Shown piece by piece: positions 2,278 to 60,847 of a DNA stretch of 64,000 nucleotides. The stretch is taken from IMG/VR virus record IMGVR_UViG_3300021431_000075, positions 224,001 to 288,000 of that record. The stretch is one strand, 5' to 3'. The notes beneath the pieces are model-generated. The model did no database searches and was not told the DNA's origin. It saw only the letters and a list, made by a program, of their open reading frames with translations. Each line of letters starts with the position of its first letter. Position 1 is the stretch's first letter. The translations under genes were made by a program, and so were the position numbers. Source of the DNA: a virus. Taxonomy: Duplodnaviria > Caudoviricetes.

Positions 2278-3096
2278 TTATTTCCCGGAAAGCGTACGGG
2301 CTATCCTGTCCATGCATGTCCGGTAGTAGTCCGCGTCCTTCTCGAATCCGACAAACCTTCTTCCGGTCTCTATGCACGCGACCGCTGTCGTCCCGCTTCC
2401 AATGCAGTTGTCAAGGACCAAGTCTCCCTCGTTCGTGAACGTCTTGACCAGTTCCTTGACCAAGTCAAACGGCTTCTGCGTCGGATGCAGGTTGCTTGTC
2501 AGGATATCCCTCTTGAACCTCCAGACCTGCGTGGGGTACCGCTTGCCGGTGTCCTTGTACTCGAACGGCTTCTTGGTTCCGTTGTCTGTCAACACCCCAA
2601 GTCTGCCGCTGCCAATCTTGTTGGTTCTCTTCGGACCTGTGTATTCAATCATCTGCGGATTGTACGTGCATTGCTTCCTGTAAAATACGGATATGCACTC
2701 GACATCCTTTCCGACCCTGCGCTTGACCTGCTGAATATTCGTGAGTCTTTCCTTCTGCCAGTATATGTCATACTTGTAGTCGCTGATGTTACTGACTCTC
2801 AGATAAGACGAGAACGGTTCCTGCCCGAACAATAGCACGGCTCCGTTCTCATTGACTATCCTGCGGTAGCAACTCCATAGCCTGTCAAACGGAATCACGG
2901 TATCCCACGGACAAGCGGTCGTCCCGTATGGCAAGTCGCAAATGACGCAGTCCACGGAACCGTCCGGAATGAACTCCATCCCGTCCAGACAATCGCAGTT
3001 GTACACAGAATCCGGATCAACCACTCCGGTCTCTTTAAGATAATCCAAGTCCTTGACCGGACAGCAGCATTCATTATTGTCTATAGTGCCGTTCAT
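2278..3096 (-). CDS. Site-specific DNA methyltransferase (N6-adenine/N4-cytosine, beta class)
   Basis: DLPY catalytic motif, LHPTQKP, and DNCIGSGTT SAM-binding motif in beta order. Confidence 0.9.
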   Translation of the reverse strand: MNGTIDNNECCCPVKDLDYLKETGVVDPDSVYNCDCLDGMEFIPDGSVDCVICDLPYGTTACPWDTVIPFDRLWSCYRRIVNENGAVLLFGQEPFSSYLRVSNISDYKYDIYWQKERLTNIQQVKRRVGKDVECISVFYRKQCTYNPQMIEYTGPKRTNKIGSGRLGVLTDNGTKKPFEYKDTGKRYPTQVWRFKRDILTSNLHPTQKPFDLVKELVKTFTNEGDLVLDNCIGSGTTAVACIETGRRFVGFEKDADYYRTCMDRIARTLSGK

Positions 3097-3366: not shown

Positions 3367-4629
3367 TCAAATCAGCGGTTCGCATCTGTCCGGAAACTGC
3401 TCCCTGAAAGAGAATCTCCGCACGATGTCCTCATCACCCAGCATGAACCTTGCAAAGAGCTCGGCAACTGATACGTTGATGCTGTTGCCGAACTGCCTGT
3501 ACGCGACAGCGTCGCTGCCGTTCATGATGAAGGAATCCGGAAACGACTGTATCCTTGCGCACTCCCTCGGCGTCATGAAGCGCCGTCTCCATCCGATGAT
3601 GCTTGTCTGCGTTATGGCGACCAGAGCCGGGAAGTAAGTCGGCGGCTTCACCCTCAGTCCGCTCGGCCTGAACTGCATGATGTTGTTCCATATATCGCTA
3701 TCCGAATCTATCACGCCAGCCTGCCACTCCAGCTTCGCCTTGGCTCCGAAGAACTTCGGACACTTCCTCGACTCTGCAAGCCATCTGTCGATGAACTTCC
3801 GGTTCCTTGCGTACAGTTCCGCATTTTTTGCAGTGATGTTCCGCTTCCAGACCGGCATCGCTTCCAGCTCGCTGTTGTCAAACTTCCGGAATGCTTCAGT
3901 CCAGACCGGAAAAGACAGGTTCTCTGTCGTTCCGAGTTCCCTTATGAACATGTTCCAGTCGTCTATCAGTTCGACTAAGGAATCCTTTAGTCTGTACCTG
4001 TCTATATTCACTATCTCGCTGTCGGCATGCAATACGGACTCTACACTGCATTCAGGAATGTTCTCCGGATTGAAGCAGAAATCCGGCACTTTGCCAAGGT
4101 CGTTCCTCCTGCACACGATGAACACCCTTTCCCTGTGCTGCGGGATTCCAAGATAATGCGGACTGAATATGACAGGCTCCCTGCCGAGCGAGTACCCGAG
4201 TCCGGTCAATGTCTCGTATATGACCCTCCATGTGTTTCCGCGGTCGTGCGACGCAAGGTTCCTCACGTTCTCAAGGATGACGAACCTCGGCTTGTGCCGC
4301 TTTATGATCCTGCACACGTCGAAGAAAAGGGTTCCCTTGGTCTCGTCCGCGAAGCCGAGCCTCTTTCCGGCCTTGGAGAACGCTTGGCACGGAAAGCCCG
4401 CGCACAGCACGTCATGCTCCGGGATGTCGTTCTCGTCAACGGCGGTTATGTCAGCGGCAGGCTCGATTCTGTAGTTCTCCGCATAAGTCTTCCTGCACTG
4501 CGGGTCTATGTCGCACGCGAACACGCACTCTCCGCCGAGCCGCGTCATCGCCTGATGGAACGCGCCGACTCCGCAGAACAGGTCTATGAACCTAAAGTCT
4601 CCATTCATCTGTTGTCGTCGATTAAGCAA
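3367..4629 (-). CDS. DNA (cytosine-5)-methyltransferase
   Basis: DLFCGVG (motif I), GFPCQ (IV), ENV (VI), QHRER (VIII), RECARIQSFP and QFGNS (IX-X). Confidence 0.95.
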   Translation of the reverse strand: MLNRRQQMNGDFRFIDLFCGVGAFHQAMTRLGGECVFACDIDPQCRKTYAENYRIEPAADITAVDENDIPEHDVLCAGFPCQAFSKAGKRLGFADETKGTLFFDVCRIIKRHKPRFVILENVRNLASHDRGNTWRVIYETLTGLGYSLGREPVIFSPHYLGIPQHRERVFIVCRRNDLGKVPDFCFNPENIPECSVESVLHADSEIVNIDRYRLKDSLVELIDDWNMFIRELGTTENLSFPVWTEAFRKFDNSELEAMPVWKRNITAKNAELYARNRKFIDRWLAESRKCPKFFGAKAKLEWQAGVIDSDSDIWNNIMQFRPSGLRVKPPTYFPALVAITQTSIIGWRRRFMTPRECARIQSFPDSFIMNGSDAVAYRQFGNSINVSVAELFARFMLGDEDIVRRFSFREQFPDRCEPLI

Positions 4630-16750: not shown

Positions 16751-17305
16751 ATGAGACACAGAACCACAAACCGTTCGGTATACGAAGACATACTGAAGGA
16801 TGTCAGGAAGATTGTCCGCAGACACCTGAACGAGATAAACATAATGGGAGTCGAGGTTGACTCCGCAATCCAGGGAAAGATGAGCGACCTTGACGACATA
16901 GACAAGGAGGTTCCGTTCAAGGACAGGAAGATAACCGAGACCGTGCAGGGAATCTACAAGAAGATGTTCCTCGGCAAGTACGCGTACTTCATGAAGCAGA
17001 ACAAGATGCAGGACACGATAGAGTGGTCGTACAAGATGAACAGCGCATGCACCGACGGGTTCGAGGGAAGGCTGGTCATGAATCCGGAATTCGCGACGTT
17101 CATATACGAGAACACCGGAGAACTCGGAATCCAGTTCATCATCCTGCACGAGACGATGCACAACTACTACAACAACGTGAGGCACGCGCAGAAGGTGGAC
17201 TCTGTCGCAGCGAACATATCCGTGGACAGGAGAATCAACGGGGAAATCATCAGCAGGTGGCCGGAGTTCAAGGAGATTCCGGAGAAGATTGGCGCGCTGC
17301 TGTGA
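16751..17305 (+). CDS. Putative HExxH metallopeptidase (DUF2201 N-terminal-like) with YE..LNE leader
   Basis: ACTDG...FIILHETMH...ANISVDRRIN. ATG 16751 lies downstream of ATAAATA at 16719-16725. Confidence 0.65.
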   Translation: MRHRTTNRSVYEDILKDVRKIVRRHLNEINIMGVEVDSAIQGKMSDLDDIDKEVPFKDRKITETVQGIYKKMFLGKYAYFMKQNKMQDTIEWSYKMNSACTDGFEGRLVMNPEFATFIYENTGELGIQFIILHETMHNYYNNVRHAQKVDSVAANISVDRRINGEIISRWPEFKEIPEKIGALL

Positions 17306-17492
17306 TTAAGACAGACAAGACATATATTCAAGTAGCAGCATATGCACAGGTTTCATAAAGCCGAGCATATGCTGCCTTATTTTATTATGTACAGGTACAT
17401 TATTTGTTATCATATATTGAAAATTATATAAAATATATGATTGTTTAACATCATTTAACAAGTAATATTACAATCCTGATTTCTTTTATTGC

Positions 17493-17500
17493 TATATTTG
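17493..17500 (+). promoter_or_regulatory. Bacteroidota-type -7 promoter element upstream of cas9
   Basis: TATATTTG matches TAnnTTTG. The -33 element is weak. Confidence 0.5.
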
Positions 17501-17548
17501 CATCATGTTTTTAAATCAAAACAATATGAACAGTTGCTATGACATAAT

Positions 17549-17648
17549 AAAAAAGAAAGAATCGCTCAATGAACGACTCTCTCTAATGCGAAAACGCAAC
17601 GGTAAAATTCGTAAAGAATAAACCTTATTGCGAATCACTTGCATACAT
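17549..17648 (-). ncRNA. tracrRNA: tracrRNA of the type II-C system
   Basis: 17627-17648 (ATTGCGAATCACTTGCATACAT) matches the repeat 5' half, so the minus strand is an anti-repeat. It is followed by an AAUAAGG...CCG nexus, a UGCG/CGCA hairpin and a GAGAGAGUCGUUCA-UUGAGCGAUUCUUUC-U6 terminator. Own promoter TACCTTTG (17660-17653) with TTTG 20 nt upstream. Confidence 0.9.
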
Positions 17649-17728
17649 GGTGCAAAGGTAAGCATATTGTTCGGTTCATGCAAATATAATTACAAGAATA
17701 TTTCATTCATTAATAATTTTTAACAAAA

Positions 17729-20700
17729 ATGAAAAAAATCATCGGTCTTGACCTCGGCACGACGACTGTCGGATGGTCTTATCTGAAAGTGCCGGAGAAT
17801 GAAAATGAAACACTGGAAGTCGTCGACTCTGATCCCAGAATCATACCGACAGCGTTGAACAAGACGGAATTCGACGCATACCAGCAAGGAAACGCTGTTA
17901 CGATAAACGCAGACAGACGGAAGTATAGAAGTTCAAGAACTGTCAAGAAAAGATACAAGGAACGCAGGAGAGACCTGACAAACCTGTGCATATCATGCGG
18001 CTTCATAAAAGACAAATCCGAACTCACATCATGCGAGTCTACGAAATTCTTCCAGACACTGAAAGTAAGAGCTGCTGCTGTTACAGAGCAAGTTTCCCTT
18101 CAGGACCTTGCTCGTATTCTTGTCCAGATAAACAAGAAGCGTGGATACAAAAGCAGCAGGAAACTGAACAAGGCTGACACTGAATCGACCGGAAGCGTCG
18201 ATGTTGCCATGAAAATCCGAACCAGCGGGATGACTCCGTCGCAATACACGTACAGCAGGATGCAGTCAGGCAACTTTGCCGTTCCGTCATACTTCAAGTC
18301 GGATTTGGTGAACGAGCTTGATAGAATATGGAACTTCCAGAAAAGGTTCTATCCGGATATTCTGACAGACGAGTTGTGGAAAGAGATGGATGGGAAGAAG
18401 CAGAGGGATACGATTTCAATTTTTAAGAAACATGGCATCATGCAGGACGACTGCAAGGAAGCAAGCGCGAATGAGAAAAAAATGAATATCGCGAAATGGG
18501 GTGTTGATGCCATTAGCGAACAGATTCCGCTATCCAGACTTGCGACAGTCATCGCAGTCCTGAAAGGCAAGATAGGCGCGACAAGCGAGATGCTTGACAC
18601 TCTTGGCGATCACACAATAATCCTCACAATCAACAACTGGTCTATCGGACAGTACTTGATGGACATCGTCAAGAAAAACAGCAATGCGAGAATCAGCAAC
18701 ATCAGGTTCTATAGAAACGACTACGACAATGAGTTCAGCATGATATGGAACAAGCAGGCTGAATTCTATCCGGAACTGACCGATGAGCTAAAGAAGAAGT
18801 TCCATGACATCATATTCTTCCAGAGACCCCGTCCGAGCATGAAGTACCTTGTCAACTACTGCGAGCTTGAGAGCAAAGAAATCGAGGTCGTCAAGAACGG
18901 AAAGAAGATAAAGGTAACTACTGGGAGCAAGGTCTGTCCGAAATCATCGCCGCTGTTCCAAGAATTCAGATTGTGGCAGACGTTGAACAACATACAGGTG
19001 AAGGATACCAAGACGAAAGATTCCAGACGGCTTTCTGTCGATGAGATGAACATCCTTGCATCCGAACTTGAGACCAGAGAGAAACTGGACAAGAGCGAAA
19101 TACTCAAGATTCTGGATATAAACCAGAACGACTTCGATATCAACTACAAGAAGATACCCGGAAACAAGACACAGACCGCGCTGCTCAACGCATACTTATC
19201 CGTAATAGAGTCTATGGGGAACGAACCATTTGATGTTGAAAATGCAAGCGGTTCACAACTGATGGACTATGTCAAGAACTCGTTTGAAAAGAACGGATTC
19301 AACGCAAGCGTCCTACACTTCAACTCCGACACGAACGACATCTCGAAAGACAGCATGTACATGCTATGGCATCTTCTGTATTCATATGCAGGAGACAACT
19401 CCAGACTCGGTTTTGAATCGCTCATCACGAAAGTAAGGGAGATGCTCAACTTAAACAACGATGACCAAGCAAAGGCTGTCGTGGGAGTGATGCTCGAAGA
19501 AGACTACGGAAACCTAAGCGCGAAAGCGATGAAGAAGATTCTTCCGTTCATGAAGAAAGGGCTTGAATACGACAAAGCTTGCGAGCAAGCCGGATACAAT
19601 TTCTCGAAAACATCAATCCGGAAGTCGGAATACAGCAATCAGGTTTTGCTTGAACATCTTGAACTGCTGCGAAAGAACAGTCTCCGCAATCCGATAGCCG
19701 AGAAAATCATCAACCAGATGATCAATGTCGTGAACATGCTGATTGACAAGTACGGAAAGCCGGACGGTTTCTGCGTAGAGCTTGCACGCGAACTGAAGAA
19801 CAGCATAAAGCGCAGAAAGGAAATATACGAACAGAACCAGAAAGCCGAAGAATACAACAACAAAATCAAAGATATTATATCAAAGCCTCCGTTCAACTGC
19901 CCATATCCGTCGGAACAGAAGAACATCGACAGATACAAGTTGTACGAAGAACTTGAGCCGAACGGGTTCCGAACTCTGTACTCAGGAACCCTGATAAAGC
20001 CGGAAGAACTGTTTTCCAATAAGTTCAATAGGGAGCATATCATCCCACAGGCAAGGACGACAGACAACAGCCTGTCCAACTTGACACTTGAACTTGAGAC
20101 ATCAAACAGCGACAAAAGCAGCATGACTGCATATGACTATGTCCGGTCAATCGGCAAGACAGAAGAGTATGAGCAAAACGTGAAACGGATATTCGAGAAC
20201 TATTCTCCGGCATTGCTTAAGAAGCGCGGGCTTCCTGAAAACTACGGAAAGACGAAGGCGAAGAACCTCATGACAACATCAGAAGAGATACCGTCCGGAT
20301 TCATCGAGAGAGACCTCAAGCTCACCCAGTTCATCACGAAGAAATGCGCGGAGATTCTTCAGCAACTTGTCGGCATAGAGAACGTAAGGTTCACGACAGG
20401 ACAGGTGACGTCGCAGCTTCGGGAAGACTGGGGTCTCAACGATATGATGAAGGAACTGAACATGGAAAGGCTTGAGGCTTCCGGAAACGTGTATGAAGTG
20501 ACATACGCGAACGGGAACACAGTGAAGAAAGTGAACAACTTCACGAAGCGCAACGATCACCGGAACCATGCCCTTGATGCAATCATCATTGCATGCACTA
20601 CACAAGAGCATATCGTATACATGAACAACAAGAGTTCAAAAGGCAAGAAGAACGGGCAGATATACAAAATCATCAAAACGAAAATGCATAGGGATGGCGA

Positions 20701-22066
20701 GGGAAAACTGCGGTTCAACCCTCCGGTTCCATATGATGTTTTCCATTCCGTTGTCAAGAACGCGATGGAGAATATGATTGTATCCCACAACAAGAAACTG
20801 TCTCCAGTGACTACCGGCAAGAGCGTATCCAAAGACGGAACCGTTACAAAGAACGTAGTTCCGCGCGGTCCGCTCCATGACGACACGTTGTACGGTCAAA
20901 GAACCGTGAACTCGATAAGGTATGTCATGGTCTCTGAAGGCAAGGACGGTTTGTCAAACAGCATCATCGACTGTATAGCGAACCAGTCATACAGAGACGC
21001 AGTCAAGCAAAGGCTTGCGGATTACTCTACGTTGAAGAAGGCGTTCGGAAAAGACAACAACGTCATCGACAATCCGATATGGCTGGACAAGATTCACTCT
21101 GCAAAAGTTCCGCCGTTCGTGAAGATAGTCGAGACAGAAAAGATATTCACCATCAGAAAGAAGCTGGATAAAAAGGATATGTTCAAACTGCACACGTTCA
21201 AAATCAACGGCACTGAACTGGTAGAAGGCAAAAGCAAGAAACACATCAGCGACGCGTTCTGTGAGCCATATGCGAGCCATATCAAGTGCTTGATGCTATC
21301 AGGAACATGCAAGACTCTCAAATGCGCCATAGAAAGAAGCGGAGCCGACTTCATCCACTGGATAGACGAAGACACGTTCATATCATTCAAGTCCGTAAGA
21401 GAACTTGTTATTGACAAGGCATGCGCGGATGCAATCATCAGAAGGATTGTAGATAGCAAATGTGACTTGAAAGCAGCATTCGAGAACATAGACAATAATC
21501 CGATATGGATTGATGACAAGCACACGAGATTCGTAAGCAGAGTGACTATGAAAGCATTCATCACAGACAACAGCTCTGTTCAAATACGGAACGGAAAAAC
21601 CAGCGTGAAAACGAACAACAACCATACTGCCGCTTTGTATATGAAACCGAACGGAACTGTAGAGATGGTCGTGGTATCTTTCTTTGATTCTGTCAACAAG
21701 TCCGTGTGCAGGAAGCCTGTCATAGACAAGGAGTTCAACAAGGAACTCGGATGGAAGTTCATCATGTCATTCGTGAAGAACGATATACTCATTCTCAAGA
21801 ATGACGAGACCGGATTCGACCCGAAAAAGATAGACTTGACCGACAGAAGCAACAACTCTTTGATTGCTCCGAATGCATATAGAGTCCAGAAGTTTTCGGA
21901 TGACATGTGCATGCTAAGGCATATCAATGATACTACAACCGAAATCGGTCCTGCTGGAAACTTCAAGTCATTATACGGAAAGAAAAATCTGAGGATTTTA
22001 GCAGATGCGGTGAAAGTCAAGGTCGATAGCATCGGACACATTTGTTTAGAAACTGATTGCATGTAA
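17729..22066 (+). CDS. cas9: Type II-C CRISPR-associated endonuclease Cas9 (Bacteroidota-like)
   Basis: RuvC-I GLDLGT, Arg-rich bridge helix RRKYRSSRTVKKRYKERR, RuvC-II VELAREL, HNH EHIIPQA...N...N, RuvC-III HRNHALDA. 1445 aa with adjacent tracrRNA and array. Confidence 0.97.
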   Translation: MKKIIGLDLGTTTVGWSYLKVPENENETLEVVDSDPRIIPTALNKTEFDAYQQGNAVTINADRRKYRSSRTVKKRYKERRRDLTNLCISCGFIKDKSELTSCESTKFFQTLKVRAAAVTEQVSLQDLARILVQINKKRGYKSSRKLNKADTESTGSVDVAMKIRTSGMTPSQYTYSRMQSGNFAVPSYFKSDLVNELDRIWNFQKRFYPDILTDELWKEMDGKKQRDTISIFKKHGIMQDDCKEASANEKKMNIAKWGVDAISEQIPLSRLATVIAVLKGKIGATSEMLDTLGDHTIILTINNWSIGQYLMDIVKKNSNARISNIRFYRNDYDNEFSMIWNKQAEFYPELTDELKKKFHDIIFFQRPRPSMKYLVNYCELESKEIEVVKNGKKIKVTTGSKVCPKSSPLFQEFRLWQTLNNIQVKDTKTKDSRRLSVDEMNILASELETREKLDKSEILKILDINQNDFDINYKKIPGNKTQTALLNAYLSVIESMGNEPFDVENASGSQLMDYVKNSFEKNGFNASVLHFNSDTNDISKDSMYMLWHLLYSYAGDNSRLGFESLITKVREMLNLNNDDQAKAVVGVMLEEDYGNLSAKAMKKILPFMKKGLEYDKACEQAGYNFSKTSIRKSEYSNQVLLEHLELLRKNSLRNPIAEKIINQMINVVNMLIDKYGKPDGFCVELARELKNSIKRRKEIYEQNQKAEEYNNKIKDIISKPPFNCPYPSEQKNIDRYKLYEELEPNGFRTLYSGTLIKPEELFSNKFNREHIIPQARTTDNSLSNLTLELETSNSDKSSMTAYDYVRSIGKTEEYEQNVKRIFENYSPALLKKRGLPENYGKTKAKNLMTTSEEIPSGFIERDLKLTQFITKKCAEILQQLVGIENVRFTTGQVTSQLREDWGLNDMMKELNMERLEASGNVYEVTYANGNTVKKVNNFTKRNDHRNHALDAIIIACTTQEHIVYMNNKSSKGKKNGQIYKIIKTKMHRDGEGKLRFNPPVPYDVFHSVVKNAMENMIVSHNKKLSPVTTGKSVSKDGTVTKNVVPRGPLHDDTLYGQRTVNSIRYVMVSEGKDGLSNSIIDCIANQSYRDAVKQRLADYSTLKKAFGKDNNVIDNPIWLDKIHSAKVPPFVKIVETEKIFTIRKKLDKKDMFKLHTFKINGTELVEGKSKKHISDAFCEPYASHIKCLMLSGTCKTLKCAIERSGADFIHWIDEDTFISFKSVRELVIDKACADAIIRRIVDSKCDLKAAFENIDNNPIWIDDKHTRFVSRVTMKAFITDNSSVQIRNGKTSVKTNNNHTAALYMKPNGTVEMVVVSFFDSVNKSVCRKPVIDKEFNKELGWKFIMSFVKNDILILKNDETGFDPKKIDLTDRSNNSLIAPNAYRVQKFSDDMCMLRHINDTTTEIGPAGNFKSLYGKKNLRILADAVKVKVDSIGHICLETDCM

Positions 22067-22109
22067 ATATCAAAATACGGAAGATACAAAATCAATTTCT
22101 ACTTTGTGT

Positions 22110-22715
22110 GTTGCGAACCGCTTGCATATATACATTAAACATCAAAGGATGTCATTCAGGCTGTTGCGAACCGCTTGCATACATACACATTAAACACATA
22201 AGTTCACATGGCGAAGAATACAACTTTTGTTGTGAACCGCTTCCATACATACACATTAAACACCAGCCGAGTATGAGAGGATCCTGATTATGTTGTGATT
22301 TGCTTGCATACATACACATTAAACACCCACTAACGTGCTCTCTTGCACTATGCAGTTGTGATTCACATGCATACATACACATTAAACACCGGCATCGTTC
22401 TTCACTTTTATACACGTTGTGTTTCACTTGCATACAGATACATAAAACACCAGCGGAGAAACTTTCCTCATCAAGTTCTACGTTGTGTTTCACTTGCATA
22501 CAGATACATAAAACACCTTAATGCATCTTGGAGCAAAATAAACTCGAGTTGTGTTTCACTTGCATACAGATACATAAAACACCTTCATCCGGGTCTGTAG
22601 TCGTAGCCCAATTGTTGTGTTTCACTTGCATACAGATACATAAAACACCATAGCCTTGTTCCTGAAAATGCGCTGCAAGGTTGTGTTTCGCTTGCATACA
22701 GATACATAAAACACC
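22110..22715 (+). CRISPR. CRISPR array, 10 repeats (36 nt, GTTGTGTTTCACTTGCATACAGATACATAAAACACC) and 9 spacers
   Basis: Repeats start at 22110, 22163, 22229, 22292, 22355, 22416, 22482, 22548, 22614 and 22680. Spacers are ~19, 30, 27, 27, 25, 30, 30, 30, 30 nt. Orientation taken from tracrRNA complementarity. Confidence 0.97.
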
Positions 22716-22741
22716 ACACTTCTTATAACTGTGTGGTGTTT
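22709..22741 (+). terminator. Hairpin overlapping the last repeat (terminator or leader-repeat stem)
   Basis: AAACACCACAC-11 nt-GTGTGGTGTTT perfect 11-bp stem, followed by an AT-rich leader-like tract. Confidence 0.6.
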
Positions 22742-22869
22742 AATATTTTATGAGCAATATTGGATTTATAAAATGATAATATATAAATATCAATTACATA
22801 AAAATTCTATTTTTTAATTTCTATTTATATACAATAAAAAGACAATACGTAAAAACACATACAAGTGCA

Positions 22870-23160
22870 TCACAACACTTGTTTATTATTTTTCCTTATA
22901 TACTCCCGGACATCCTTCCAGAACTCCAGCAAGTCAAGCGTTCCGTTGATAGTCTCGTATGTTTCACTGTCAAGGCACATAAGCGTGTCATCAAAACTGT
23001 CGAGCCTATCCTCGCACCTGCGGATAAACGTGTCAACCTCGGCGGCTGTGTACTGCTTGGCATGGTCCCTGATGCACAGTGCATAGTCTGCCTTGACAAG
23101 CAGGAGAACCAGCAACCCGACAAAAGCCAGCACGAGAAAGAGGATTACGAAGAAGCCCAT
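22870..23160 (-). CDS. Small membrane-anchored hypothetical protein
   Basis: Hydrophobic N-terminus, 96 aa. Confidence 0.6.
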   Translation of the reverse strand: MGFFVILFLVLAFVGLLVLLLVKADYALCIRDHAKQYTAAEVDTFIRRCEDRLDSFDDTLMCLDSETYETINGTLDLLEFWKDVREYIRKNNKQVL

Positions 23161-23232
23161 AGCACAGATTGACGTTTATAAGTTACAATTATTATACAAC
23201 AAAAGTTCCGGATAGTTTAAAATAAGTCCAAG

Positions 23233-23306
23233 TGATCCGGACAGGATTCGAACCTGCGACCCGCAGTTTAGGAAACTGCCGCTCTATCCTGCTGAGCTAC
23301 CGGACC
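23233..23306 (-). tRNA. tRNA-Arg (CCT), no encoded CCA
   Basis: GGTCCGG/CCGGATC acceptor stem, TAGCTCAG D-arm, GCAGT-TTCCTAA-ACTGC anticodon arm, GGTTCGAATCC T-arm. Confidence 0.95.
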
Positions 23307-57379: not shown

Positions 57380-58825
57380 CTACGCGAGCTTGGACAGGAT
57401 ATATTTCTCTACATCCCTGCTGTTGAACGTGTAGTACCCTCCGCGCTTGTATTTCCGCAGCGACTTCACGTAGTCCACGAACTCCTGCTTCAGAAGGATG
57501 CATCTTGCTTCTTCAATGGAGAGACCCAGTATGTACAGTCCGCTGTACACGCCCTGTCCTTCATCTACGGATTCTATTTTAAGATCGCCGACATCCCTGA
57601 TGATGCAGTTCAGCGCAATCTTCTTCGTGCAGACGTCCTTGACTCCCTGGCTCCTTCCGAACCCGTACCAGACCGGGGAGTCGTTCCTTCTGTCCAGCAG
57701 TTCTGCCTTATGGCTTTCAAGGTAATCCCTGACTTCCTGCTGCCGGAACAGCTCGTCTTCCGGAACCGGCTGTCCGTCGCAGTAGTACGGAAACAGGCAT
57801 CTCGTCCACTTGCCGGTGGATGCCTTCACGACATCTATCGTGAAGTCGCTAATCGGAACATCGTCTCCTATGAACACGCGGTCGCAAAGCGTCGCGAATC
57901 CGTTCTTCACCCGCACGTTTCCCCTCGCGCTGCTGTTGATAATCGCGGATACCATATCGACAGTCTCCGGGTCCCCGAGTATGAGTCCGGCTTCCGTGAA
58001 CGCCTTGTCGAACGCCAGCGTCCTGAAGCCGCGGCTCTCTGTCATGACGTTCTCCTCGTTGAGCCTCGCGCTGCAGAAGCGGAATGTCGGAGAGCAGGAG
58101 TCGTGGACGAACAGCGAAATCGCCGCATATGTCGTCGCGTTCTCGAACACCTGCTCGTGACCGAAGTCTATGATGGTCCGGAGAGACCTCGACCGCCTGA
58201 TGTAGTCCCTCATCTCCCGTGCCGCCTTGCTCATGAACCAAGAGCTCGGCGTTATGTAGCACATCACGCCGTCCGGACTCATCATCGCGAATCCGATTTC
58301 AAAGAACGCGAGGTACAAGTCCGTCATTCCGGATTTCATGAAGCTGAACTCGTCTCTCATGTCCCGGTACGAGTCGCGCAGGTTATGCACTCTTACATAC
58401 GGAGGATTCCCTACGACGAAGTCCATTCTGCAGTCGTACTTCCGCTCTGTCAGCGCGTCGCACCTGCGCACATCCCAGTCAACTCCGTACACTCCGTTCT
58501 GCGCGGCTTCCTTGTTCAGATTATCCATGCACTCGGCAACCGCGTCCCCGTCTATGTCCATTCCGTGGATGTATGTTCCGAGGTCCTTCCTGAGCTTCTC
58601 GTAGCTTTCCGCGGACTTGTCATTCTTGATGAAGAACGCGGAGCAGTATCTCCGGACCGCGGATGTTAGGAACGCGCCGTCTCCGCAGCTGTTGTCCATG
58701 AGATGCTTCCCGAGGATTCCGGTCCCGTTGTACATGCACATGTCGAGTATCTTCCGGACTATCCATTTCGGAGTGAACACCTGTCCGGTTGTTTTCGTAT
58801 CTTTCATTTGCTTGTCTTTTTTCAT
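57380..58825 (-). CDS. N6-adenine DNA methyltransferase (gamma class, TaqI/Eco57I-like)
   Basis: GQVFTP, DNSCGDGAF, GNPPY, DLYLAF, YITPSSW, plus a C-terminal target-recognition region. Confidence 0.9.
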   Translation of the reverse strand: MKKDKQMKDTKTTGQVFTPKWIVRKILDMCMYNGTGILGKHLMDNSCGDGAFLTSAVRRYCSAFFIKNDKSAESYEKLRKDLGTYIHGMDIDGDAVAECMDNLNKEAAQNGVYGVDWDVRRCDALTERKYDCRMDFVVGNPPYVRVHNLRDSYRDMRDEFSFMKSGMTDLYLAFFEIGFAMMSPDGVMCYITPSSWFMSKAAREMRDYIRRSRSLRTIIDFGHEQVFENATTYAAISLFVHDSCSPTFRFCSARLNEENVMTESRGFRTLAFDKAFTEAGLILGDPETVDMVSAIINSSARGNVRVKNGFATLCDRVFIGDDVPISDFTIDVVKASTGKWTRCLFPYYCDGQPVPEDELFRQQEVRDYLESHKAELLDRRNDSPVWYGFGRSQGVKDVCTKKIALNCIIRDVGDLKIESVDEGQGVYSGLYILGLSIEEARCILLKQEFVDYVKSLRKYKRGGYYTFNSRDVEKYILSKLA

Positions 58826-59365: not shown

Positions 59366-60847
59366 TCATGTAACATTATTTTGTGCCAAGTTATTCTTTT
59401 TGAAAGAAATCTTCTTGGCATAAATCCTGTTAGACAAAAGTTTGGAGACAACTGTCTGACAATCAGACAGAGAGACGCGATACATCATTTTCGAGTCTGC
59501 TTTTAGAGCATAATAGATTTTCCTCAGGTCTATTTCAGAGTCCTTCAAGTTAAATACTTCCATCGTTCGCTCTATCTGTTCTCTGAAGTCATCAACGTTC
59601 GGAAACAATATGTTCTTTGTTTGTTTGAAATCTTTAACTTTATACTGGTGATAATATTCGTAAGTCCTACGTCCTATTTCGATTGATGCAAGGCACATGT
59701 CTGCATAACCGCAATCCCTAAATATGAAGTTGCCTACGAAACTGCTGTACTCGCACATCACTTCCAAGCACTCTATGTCATATTCAGCACAGTTCTTTCT
59801 TATGTTGTCAATCAAAGGTCTGCGGAGCCACTGGTTGTTTATAAGCCTGTTGAAGTTCGTTCCTTTCTTGTTGTCCTTTGTTACGATTGCAAGTTGCTCG
59901 TAGCCGAACAGAGAGCAACCGTAGTGAACTGCTATGCTTATTAAAGTTTTGGATATGAGAAATATCTCGTTGTGACGCTCGTTCTTTATCTTCTTTCTCT
60001 TTCTATGACTGCTTGGAAGATGCTGTCCTTTCAGTGCATTTTCTGCGTCATTAAGGTCCTTGATTGTAATAGTATTTGATTCTACTATATGGAAGTCGCT
60101 GTGTGACTTCCAGTCAACGACGCTCCATCCGACATAGTTGGGGTTCAGGTCTATCGCAAGAACCCTGTCTTGAATCTGCTTCGGTCTATTAACTATCTTG
60201 ACGTTCTTGTACAGTTTTTCAACAGAATAAGTTATATAAACAAATTCAGAGTCAATCTTGTAAGTGATTGGCATGTCACCCACAAGCTGATGCTCATAGA
60301 GCAGTCTTATAATCTTGAGATAATTCTTTGACAACCTTGCAGAGAACTTGACTTGTGTCCATTTCTTTCCCGGCATTAGTATTCTAATGCCGCTCAAGTC
60401 GTCAAGCAATCTGAACTTCCTGTTTCCATATAGTCTTGTTGAACCTGAGTCTGCCGTTCCTATACTGACGAGCGGAGAGAGCCTGCCGGCTCTCAATTCT
60501 TCCTTCGAAATCTTTCCGCTTCTATAGTCATTCATCAAAGACTTGCCGCCGAAGCAAGTTCGTATCTTCTTCTCACTTAACTTCTGCTGCTCTTTCTCGG
60601 TTTCGTATATTGCATTGCCTTCTTTTATTGCAGAATTCTTCAGCCAAGAGTCAAGCAAGTCTATGTCATTGTAGTTGTCAAACGAATTGAACTTTACAGG
60701 AAGTTCTTTCTCGTATTTCTTGAAAGCGGATCGTATGATGTGCGTCTGCTGTCTCTGCAAATCAGAAATCAACATACGGTCTTCGGTTGAACTGTATTCA
60801 ACCGGAATCTTTATCGTGCTGTATGTATCTTTCTGATTTTTAGACAT
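59366..60847 (-). CDS. tnpB: TnpB-related RuvC nuclease (IS200/IS605 accessory-protein-like), stand-alone
   Basis: RuvC-I LAIDLNP, RuvC-II YEQL, YSSFVGN, RuvC-III ADMCLASIEIGRR. No CxxC zinc finger, no adjacent tnpA, AT-rich. Confidence 0.7.
   Translation of the reverse strand: MSKNQKDTYSTIKIPVEYSSTEDRMLISDLQRQQTHIIRSAFKKYEKELPVKFNSFDNYNDIDLLDSWLKNSAIKEGNAIYETEKEQQKLSEKKIRTCFGGKSLMNDYRSGKISKEELRAGRLSPLVSIGTADSGSTRLYGNRKFRLLDDLSGIRILMPGKKWTQVKFSARLSKNYLKIIRLLYEHQLVGDMPITYKIDSEFVYITYSVEKLYKNVKIVNRPKQIQDRVLAIDLNPNYVGWSVVDWKSHSDFHIVESNTITIKDLNDAENALKGQHLPSSHRKRKKIKNERHNEIFLISKTLISIAVHYGCSLFGYEQLAIVTKDNKKGTNFNRLINNQWLRRPLIDNIRKNCAEYDIECLEVMCEYSSFVGNFIFRDCGYADMCLASIEIGRRTYEYYHQYKVKDFKQTKNILFPNVDDFREQIERTMEVFNLKDSEIDLRKIYYALKADSKMMYRVSLSDCQTVVSKLLSNRIYAKKISFKKNNLAQNNVT

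Follow-up and report, generated by a model that had tools for sequence, protein, structure and literature searches.

The 64,000-nucleotide (nt) stretch of DNA analyzed here, referred to as the window, is bases 224001-288000 of a 673,114-base-pair (bp) virus record, IMG/VR IMGVR_UViG_3300021431_000075. It carries a CRISPR-Cas9 module made up of a gene for a trans-activating CRISPR RNA (tracrRNA), a full-size cas9, and a repeat array. We consider it likely that this is a working, interference-only module that derives from the type II-C systems of Bacteroidota and is the cargo of a 673-kb, T4-like megaphage related to the Lak/Mahaphage group. The parts of the module are present and intact, cas9 is under purifying selection, the repeat and the anti-repeat co-vary, the context is viral, adaptation genes are absent, and the spacers have turned over completely between two sister phages. 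What we infer concerns the transcription pattern, the processing, the targets, the protospacer-adjacent motif (PAM), and the route of spacer gain. With a full-size Cas9 carried by a phage in the largest size class, RNA-guided nucleases would be part of the megaphage arsenal as well.

Cas9, tracrRNA, and array

The cas9 gene (17729-22066, plus strand) encodes a protein of 1445 amino acids (aa) with intact RuvC and HNH nuclease motifs, which matches the Pfam families RuvC_III (8e-43), HNH_4 (4e-14), and Cas9_a. We aligned this protein with 41 homologues. The RuvC catalytic residues D8, E684, H947, and D950 and the HNH residues E769, H770, N784, and N793 all fall in columns that are invariant across the 42 sequences, so the RuvC D/E/H/D and HNH H/N/N residues that an earlier note on this DNA had listed for the 1445-aa Cas9 stand. 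D8 and H770 align with the two engineered alanines of the dead mutant of CbCas9 (PDB 8iyq). CbCas9, a 1442-aa type II-C enzyme of Chryseobacterium, is also the best solved match to the phage protein (phmmer E value of 6e-55), and the top solved structures matching it are II-C enzymes.

A search of 5.8 billion clustered protein sequences yielded a single cluster with 94% identity to this Cas9; all others are at or below 43%. The 94% identical protein (P0002) is found on ENA contigs from sheep-rumen-type and other samples, next to the same neighbor genes, and we refer to its carrier, which is represented by five or six independent assemblies, as the sister phage. Within IMG/VR, we found no relative of this Cas9 other than the record of the window itself. 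The Cas9s next in similarity are 36-43% identical, and those that we examined are bacterial Bacteroidota II-C enzymes accompanied by cas1-cas2. Indeed, all close homologues whose surroundings we examined are in bacterial cas9-cas1-cas2 loci that have neither csn2 nor cas4, which puts the phage protein on the II-C branch. The two phage Cas9s form the longest branch of a tree built without an outgroup, with a stem of 1.18 substitutions per site compared to a median branch of 0.10. They represent a deep, otherwise unsampled Cas9 lineage with no more than 43% identity to any bacterial Cas9 found.

This lineage has an insertion of about 70 aa (residues 1152-1224; 21182-21400, plus strand) in the C-terminal WED/PI region of the protein, and the insertion is missing in at least 80% of 40 bacterial homologues. 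It is predicted to form a compact alpha/beta module, with a predicted local distance difference test (pLDDT) score of about 85-92, and the predicted fold around it matches the C-terminal part of CbCas9. Residues 1101-1300, with about 23-24% identity to homologues, are the least conserved part of Cas9. This being the WED/PI region, relatives offer no guide to the PAM.

Upstream of cas9, 26 nt from the 5′ part of the repeat recur at 17626-17651 as the anti-repeat. It has the same plus-strand sense as the repeats, so one of the two RNAs must be a minus-strand transcript. Fold, cofold, and terminator predictions point to the tracrRNA, with a length of about 100 nt and predicted ends at 17647 and 17548 on the minus strand. 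We placed it there because a Bacteroidota −7 box, TACCTTTG (17660 to 17653), stands directly before the anti-repeat, and bacterial II-C loci have a box at the equivalent site (TACCTTTG in locus L204 and TAATTTTG in locus L010). Preceded by TTG (17683 to 17681) and 20 nt, this box completes a predicted tracrRNA promoter of the Bacteroidota type (17653-17683, minus strand). Along the minus strand, the tracrRNA would run from the anti-repeat and AA through an extended nexus-like stem-loop (GG...CC) and a small GCG/CGC hairpin to a terminator with a 14-bp hairpin (17584 to 17554) followed by a U-tract. Judged by its sequence, this layout is the standard build of a Cas9 tracrRNA. The earlier note had described a divergent tracrRNA with its own promoter and terminator and had stated that all parts of a single guide RNA are visible; the minus-strand fold, the promoter, and the terminator agree with the first claim, and the guide-RNA parts can indeed be read from the sequence. 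A search of Rfam with the tracrRNA returned no match.

The tracrRNA is predicted to pair with the first ~21 nt of each repeat, and the predicted duplex with the young repeats described below has 6 bp, a 2×2 internal loop, and 13 bp, G-U pairs included. This duplex supplies the pairing of anti-repeat and CRISPR repeat that a type II system requires. An opposite arrangement, with the array on the minus strand and the tracrRNA on the plus strand, was rejected because the G-U pairs would become A-C mismatches, and because the nexus and the terminator are present only on the minus strand, whereas the plus strand runs into the cas9 start codon.

The array (22110-22715) has 10 repeats of 36 nt and 9 spacers. 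Its first repeat (R1) begins 43 nt past the cas9 stop codon, in good agreement with the 10-repeat array about 44 nt behind cas9 that had been claimed before. The CRISPR RNAs (crRNAs) are on the plus strand, co-directional with cas9. Repeats R1-R5 (22110-22390, plus strand) form an old tier; they are degenerate, drift stepwise, and have spacers S1-S5 of 17, 30, 27, 27, and 25 nt. Repeats R6-R10 (22416-22715, plus strand) form a young tier of uniform 36-nt units, in which R6-R9 are identical, R10 has one change, and spacers S6-S9 have 30 nt each. This is the only CRISPR array in the 673-kb genome. Transcription-downstream of it is a putative leader (22716-22882, plus strand), a role suggested by the polarity of the array, and this region is kept in the sister phage. 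It consists of a hairpin in which the end of R10 pairs with 22734-22741, then an AT-rich/T-rich stretch, and then a bidirectional terminator (22861-22882).

Bacteroidota −7 boxes (TAnnTTTG) are rare in this region, with only four within 17380-22900. None was found in the phage repeats or in the gap between cas9 and the array, and a scan of this 43-nt gap reported no terminator. The only plus-strand box upstream of cas9, TATATTTG (17493-17500, 229 nt upstream of the ATG), is a candidate cas9 promoter. These features suggest how the module would operate. Cas9 would be made from its own promoter, and the array would be transcribed as read-through from cas9 on the same strand, given that the array has no promoter box and the gap before it no reported terminator. 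The divergent tracrRNA would then pair with the repeats, and the RNase III of the host would probably cut the repeat:tracrRNA duplex, since we did not find an RNase III in the phage genome. Together with crRNA and tracrRNA, Cas9 would cut DNA that matches the 30-nt spacers and is adjacent to a PAM. New spacers would join at the end of the array far from cas9, through machinery acting in trans or through recombination between arrays.

If the box at 17493 drives cas9, the mRNA leader (17493-17728) would be fully antisense to the tracrRNA and contain a repeat-like segment able to pair with it, and this could be a regulatory loop. Autoregulation guided by the tracrRNA is known in the type II-A system of Streptococcus pyogenes. 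With an mRNA leader that would overlap the whole tracrRNA gene in antisense, one can imagine that Cas9 and the tracrRNA act mainly as an RNA-guided repressor, for example, of their own promoter, and that DNA cleavage is secondary. We find this improbable. Conservation of the full nuclease motifs and of the 30-nt spacers speaks for cutting, and since the divergent tracrRNA is arranged in the same way in ordinary bacterial II-C loci, this layout is no specialty of the phage.

A II-C derivative without adaptation genes

Six-frame searches of the whole 673-kb genome, with positive controls, gave no match to Cas1, Cas2, or Cas4. The earlier note had reported cas1, cas2, csn2, and cas4 to be absent from the window and had proposed to look for cas1 and cas2 in the remaining genome. 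None was found, and the absence of cas1, cas2, and cas4 thus extends to the complete genome; for csn2, there was no match either, but this is a weak result, as the control for the Csn2 search was silent. Likewise, there is no cas1-cas2 within the 10-kb flanks of the sister phage cas9. The phage genome therefore lacks the cas1-cas2 adaptation module of II-C systems. With a Cas9 on the II-C branch and no Cas1 or Cas2 in its 673-kb genome, the module is a II-C derivative and not a complete II-C system. It is in this sense, as II-C derived, that the type II-C identity given to it earlier holds, in line with the loci of the close homologues and the solved structures.

The phage module and the Bacteroidota II-C loci (L010 and L204; nearest structure, CbCas9, PDB 8iyq and 8wr4) have the same Cas9 family, a tracrRNA that is upstream and divergent, with the same −7 box and an AAGG...CCG nexus, repeats with GTTGTGAWTTGCTTG at the 5′ end and AAACACC at the 3′ end, 30-nt spacers, and, as far as array polarity indicates, entry of new spacers at the transcription-downstream end. 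The arrangement is different. In L010 and L204, cas9 is followed by cas1, cas2, the leader, and the array, in this order; the crRNAs are antisense to cas9 and read toward the leader, and a degenerate repeat is at the far end. In the phage, cas1-cas2 is absent and the array is inverted, with the crRNA on the cas9 strand. The repeat polarity is the same in the bacterial loci, which suggests that the phage kept the array-plus-leader unit, inverted with respect to cas9, and lost cas1-cas2.

The repeats differ as well. Compared to 46-47 nt in the bacteria, the phage repeat has 36 nt, with a shortened middle. When matched to the 47-nt repeat of L204, a Bacteroidaceae II-C locus, it agrees in 14 of the 15 5′-terminal positions and in 8 of the 9 3′-terminal ones. 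The middle of the bacterial repeat holds a −7 box, perfect in L010 and with one mismatch in L204, whereas the phage repeat has lost TAnnTTTG. In the phage, the nexus loop exceeds the GGAUUAUUCC form found in L010 and L204 by about 14 nt. On the protein side, the differences from the Bacteroidota II-C enzymes are the ~70-aa insertion at 1152-1224 and the longest branch in the tree.

The II-C systems of Neisseria meningitidis and Campylobacter jejuni (Nme1Cas9, PDB 6jdq) and the phage module have matching RuvC/HNH cores and WED/PI folds, and both are three-component systems without csn2 or cas4. However, the phage Cas9 is far more distant from Nme1Cas9, with an E value of about 1e-31 over the central third only, and about 360 aa longer. 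Neisseria crRNAs start at promoters within the repeats. Unlike these, the phage repeats have no internal promoter box.

Cas9-based type II systems without Cas1, Cas2, and Cas4 have been described in phages (Al-Shayeb et al. 2020, Nature 578:425, PMC7162821). By the descriptions in that report, these systems (e.g., M05_PHAGE_CIR_47_87) and the one considered here have in common a Cas9 with an array, conserved catalytic residues, the lack of acquisition genes, and a proposed role in phage-phage or phage-host conflict (PMC7162821). Cas9-bearing elements listed in its supplement are 53-106 kb, compared to a 673-kb megaphage here (PMC7162821). Cas9 had been called an uncommon phage cargo, which is right, but it is not unprecedented, as these published examples show (PMC7162821). 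The kind has been known since 2020; the present member is well preserved, rides on a megaphage, comes from a deep Cas9 lineage, and shows an inverted array, a shortened repeat that lacks a promoter box, and matching extras in protein and RNA. With readable crRNA and tracrRNA, an insertion of its own, and a divergent PAM-interacting region, this Cas9 is a candidate orthologue for PAM profiling.

Maintenance, spacer gain, and targets

Comparison of the two sister phages shows that cas9 is maintained by selection inside phages: the synonymous divergence (dS) is 0.275, the nonsynonymous divergence (dN) is 0.028, and the ratio (dN/dS) is 0.10, and no segment of the gene is relaxed. The sister array is likewise built in two tiers and has 11 spacers, none of them in common with the window array. 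Its young repeat begins with ATTGTAAATGG, that of the window with GTTGTGTTTCA. The tracrRNA regions are 96% identical, with differences clustered in the anti-repeat, where the changes opposite repeat positions 5 and 10 are accompanied by changes in the repeat itself. In predicted cofolds, the sister repeat reaches −61.4 kcal/mol with its own tracrRNA and −50.3 with the other one, and the window repeat reaches −54.3 kcal/mol with its own and −52.8 with the other. A working crRNA:tracrRNA pair would be expected to co-vary in this way. Combined with the lack of common spacers, this pattern suggests that the system is in use, or at least this is how the CRISPR-Cas9 module appears from its sequence.

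A decaying passenger, captured from a bacterium and no longer used, might look similar in part, as adaptation genes are absent, the half of the array next to cas9 is degenerate, and no target has come to light. We nevertheless think it very improbable that the module is such a relic. The dN/dS of 0.10 covers the whole of cas9, all catalytic residues are intact, the repeat and the anti-repeat co-vary, the distal repeats are uniform and have 30-nt spacers, and the spacers have been fully turned over between the sister phages.

The module also seems to have moved. Positions 16790-22060 of the window are 93-95% identical to 9070-14340 of L005, which comes from a 74.7-kb sister contig, while the flanks are at ~82-86%. 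This block holds most of the gene for a 184-aa HExxH protein, the tracrRNA, and cas9. The cas9 dS of 0.275 is about half that of most neighbors, which is 0.55-0.63 in five of the seven compared genes and 0.34 and 1.17 in the other two. The higher identity of the block and a cas9 dS about half that of most neighbors suggest that it was probably exchanged between the two phage lineages after their split. Distant relatives of the phage that have flanking genes in common with it carry no Cas9 at this site, namely, L202, with a homologue of the HExxH gene, and L199-L201, with the 318-aa, 674-aa, and Asp-protease genes, which indicates that the module is the cargo of one sub-lineage and not a core megaphage feature. 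We considered a 1006-aa protein of L199-L201 as a possible Cas9 and rejected it, as it has no similarity.

In both the window phage and the sister phage, the decayed repeats and irregular spacers adjoin cas9, and the uniform ones are at the far end. Moreover, the sister contig L007 is without only the last spacer, which is present in L005, L006, L008, and L181. From the decay near cas9 in both phages and the terminal position of the spacer absent from L007, the growing end is, on sequence grounds, the one far from cas9, transcription-downstream. Another spacer is duplicated in the sister array. Repeat mutations are found in all later units, as expected if the leader-proximal repeat is copied at each integration, and the repeat gradient along the array thus looks like a record of real acquisitions.

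Without Cas1 or Cas2 in the genome, spacers must be gained in trans or by recombination. The candidates for this are the II-C Cas1-Cas2 of a host and recombination between arrays. It is conceivable, though we would not count on it, that a Bacteroidota host II-C Cas1-Cas2 still extends the phage array in trans and recognizes the kept repeat termini (GTTGTGAWTTGCTTG ... AAACACC) despite the shortened middle. If so, immunity would be divided over two genomes, with the host as writer and the phage as reader, and the stepwise drift of the repeats would be a fossil record of acquisitions made by the host. A 2026 survey of jumbo phages again noted systems without acquisition genes and proposed host-phage complementation (PMC13037316). 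We searched for arrays with related repeats. A strict pattern of the phage repeat identified no array in 185,579 species representatives or in IMG/VR. A loose three-copy pattern produced 61 genome and at least 120 metagenome matches, and only L181 resembled the phage repeat; this is a further copy of the sister array. Two sister phages with 94% identical Cas9s and no common spacer are a natural system for the study of spacer gain without Cas1-Cas2. The difference of a single terminal spacer among the sister contigs adds to this question, which has been open since phage CRISPR was first described.

The module is likely to be an interference weapon, aimed most probably at rival phages or other mobile elements that share its host; this view of the targets is drawn by analogy from published phage systems and not from data on the locus itself. 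A search with the spacers for targets and a PAM, as the earlier note had proposed, found no protospacer in any set searched. The whole array produced only chance matches in INPHARED and PLSDB, and so did the sister array in INPHARED. When S9, S8, S7, S6, and sister S11 were searched as exact 24-30-mers in IMG/VR, there was no match, nor was there one for S9 in JGI metagenomes. There is no sign of self-targeting, as neither the spacers of the window array nor those of the sister phage match the 673-kb genome. The spacers of the bacterial L204 and L010 arrays do not match the phage.

The spacers could instead aim at the host chromosome or at defense genes, with Cas9 cutting or silencing host DNA during infection. 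Phage spacers against host genes have been reported (Al-Shayeb et al. 2020, PMC7162821), and the GC content of S8 and S9 is ~50%, compared to a phage average of 41%. However, a search of the array against 401 genomes from the family of a Hoylesella (Prevotellaceae) genome found chance-level matches only: there were nine, the best of 23-26 nt with per-genome E values of 0.002-0.01, where the summed expectation is about a few, and the true host may lie outside this sample. We consider such a takeover of the host unlikely and favor competition with phages and other mobile elements.

Several observations weigh against a working module that gains spacers and interferes with such competitors. The terminal spacer missing from L007 could be due to a deletion or an assembly effect and not to gain in the other contigs. 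No bacterial array of the phage repeat family is present in the 185,579 species genomes, so these do not provide a Cas1-Cas2 donor with a matching repeat. The host-type repeats examined have 46-47 nt, not 36 nt. Finally, with no protospacer for any spacer searched, neither the target class nor the PAM could be read.

The phage genome and neighboring genes

The 673,114-bp record has a 127-bp direct terminal repeat and is rated complete by CheckV. The same replicon carries genes for a major capsid protein of the T4 Gp23 type (111 bits over a single 722-aa frame) and for a T4-type portal (224 bits), and the window itself contains a tail-collar fiber gene, a hallmark of phage virions. A search for Terminase_6C detected nothing; of the viral hallmarks proposed for checking elsewhere in the genome, the capsid was found. 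Together with the terminal repeats and with phage-gene flanks that recur in contigs from other samples, the capsid and portal genes support the earlier view that the module is phage-borne. The host of the phage is probably among gut or rumen Bacteroidota.

The base composition raises the question of an assembly chimera, or of a bacterial island misjoined to a phage contig. The window lies in a ~90-kb block (~208-300 kb of the genome) with a GC content of 45-57%, and the remaining genome has ~38%. Yet the gene order methyltransferases, GNAT-like, HExxH, cas9, array, NUDIX, 308-aa, and 678-aa recurs in contigs from five other samples, and the array alone recurs in one further JGI metagenome contig. 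Genes of the block have paralogues elsewhere in the genome, including a large repeat-protein family and a pair of 88% identical 493-aa proteins. In the window, this 493-aa protein (59366-60847, minus strand) has no family match; its paralogue is at 326494-327972 of the genome, and its homologues of ~40% identity are on contigs whose lengths, 505-744 kb, fall in the range of Lak-type megaphages. A misjoined contig is extremely improbable in view of these findings. Given the paralogue families that block and genome have in common, and a module that has the same phage neighbors in the contigs of other samples, the record is viral rather than chimeric.

The GC-rich block ends near 300 kb, where the GC skew and the coding strand switch. 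Its paralogue families are common to the rest of the genome, and it is therefore not foreign, despite the compositional jump. The 493-aa protein may serve as a marker gene for Lak-type megaphages. Co-oriented genes for ~730-aa proteins at 208522-226246 of the genome (48-2246 of the window and upstream of it) are ~25% identical to a gene array at 70-83 kb, and they make up a very large paralogue family whose members have diverged. Apart from the array, regularly spaced 12-mers (at least three copies, 45-95 nt spacing) occur at just one site in the genome, at ~525.5 kb, outside the window.

Next to the module, the 184-aa HExxH protein (16751-17305, plus strand) is a DUF2201_N-like metallopeptidase; its gene matches phrog_1314 (3e-9), its Atlas features resemble DUF2201_N, and it has no Pfam or PDB match. 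Compared to the sister phage, the proportion of synonymous differences (pS) is 0.18 and that of nonsynonymous differences (pN) is 0.008. A 52% identical homologue is present in another phage (L202) without Cas9, and we rejected the idea of a Cas accessory for this reason. It is probably a phage backbone gene and not a Cas protein. On the other side, a tRNA-Arg(CCT) gene (23232-23306, minus strand) lies ~500 nt downstream of the array, and the window also has genes for a NUDIX hydrolase and a tRNA nucleotidyltransferase. In the sister phage, a resolvase and a 479-aa gene, an IS607-like pair (L005 19231-21292), are placed between the NUDIX and 310-aa genes, and the window is without this pair.

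Three DNA methyltransferase genes, all on the minus strand, are found at 2278-3096 (N6/N4 type), 3367-4629 (C5 type), and 57380-58825 (a third one). Three such genes in one window fit heavy self-modification of phage DNA. The phage reads with the standard genetic code. The L199-L201 homologues of the flanking 678-aa gene translate only with TAG as Gln, so this group of phages mixes recoded and non-recoded members.

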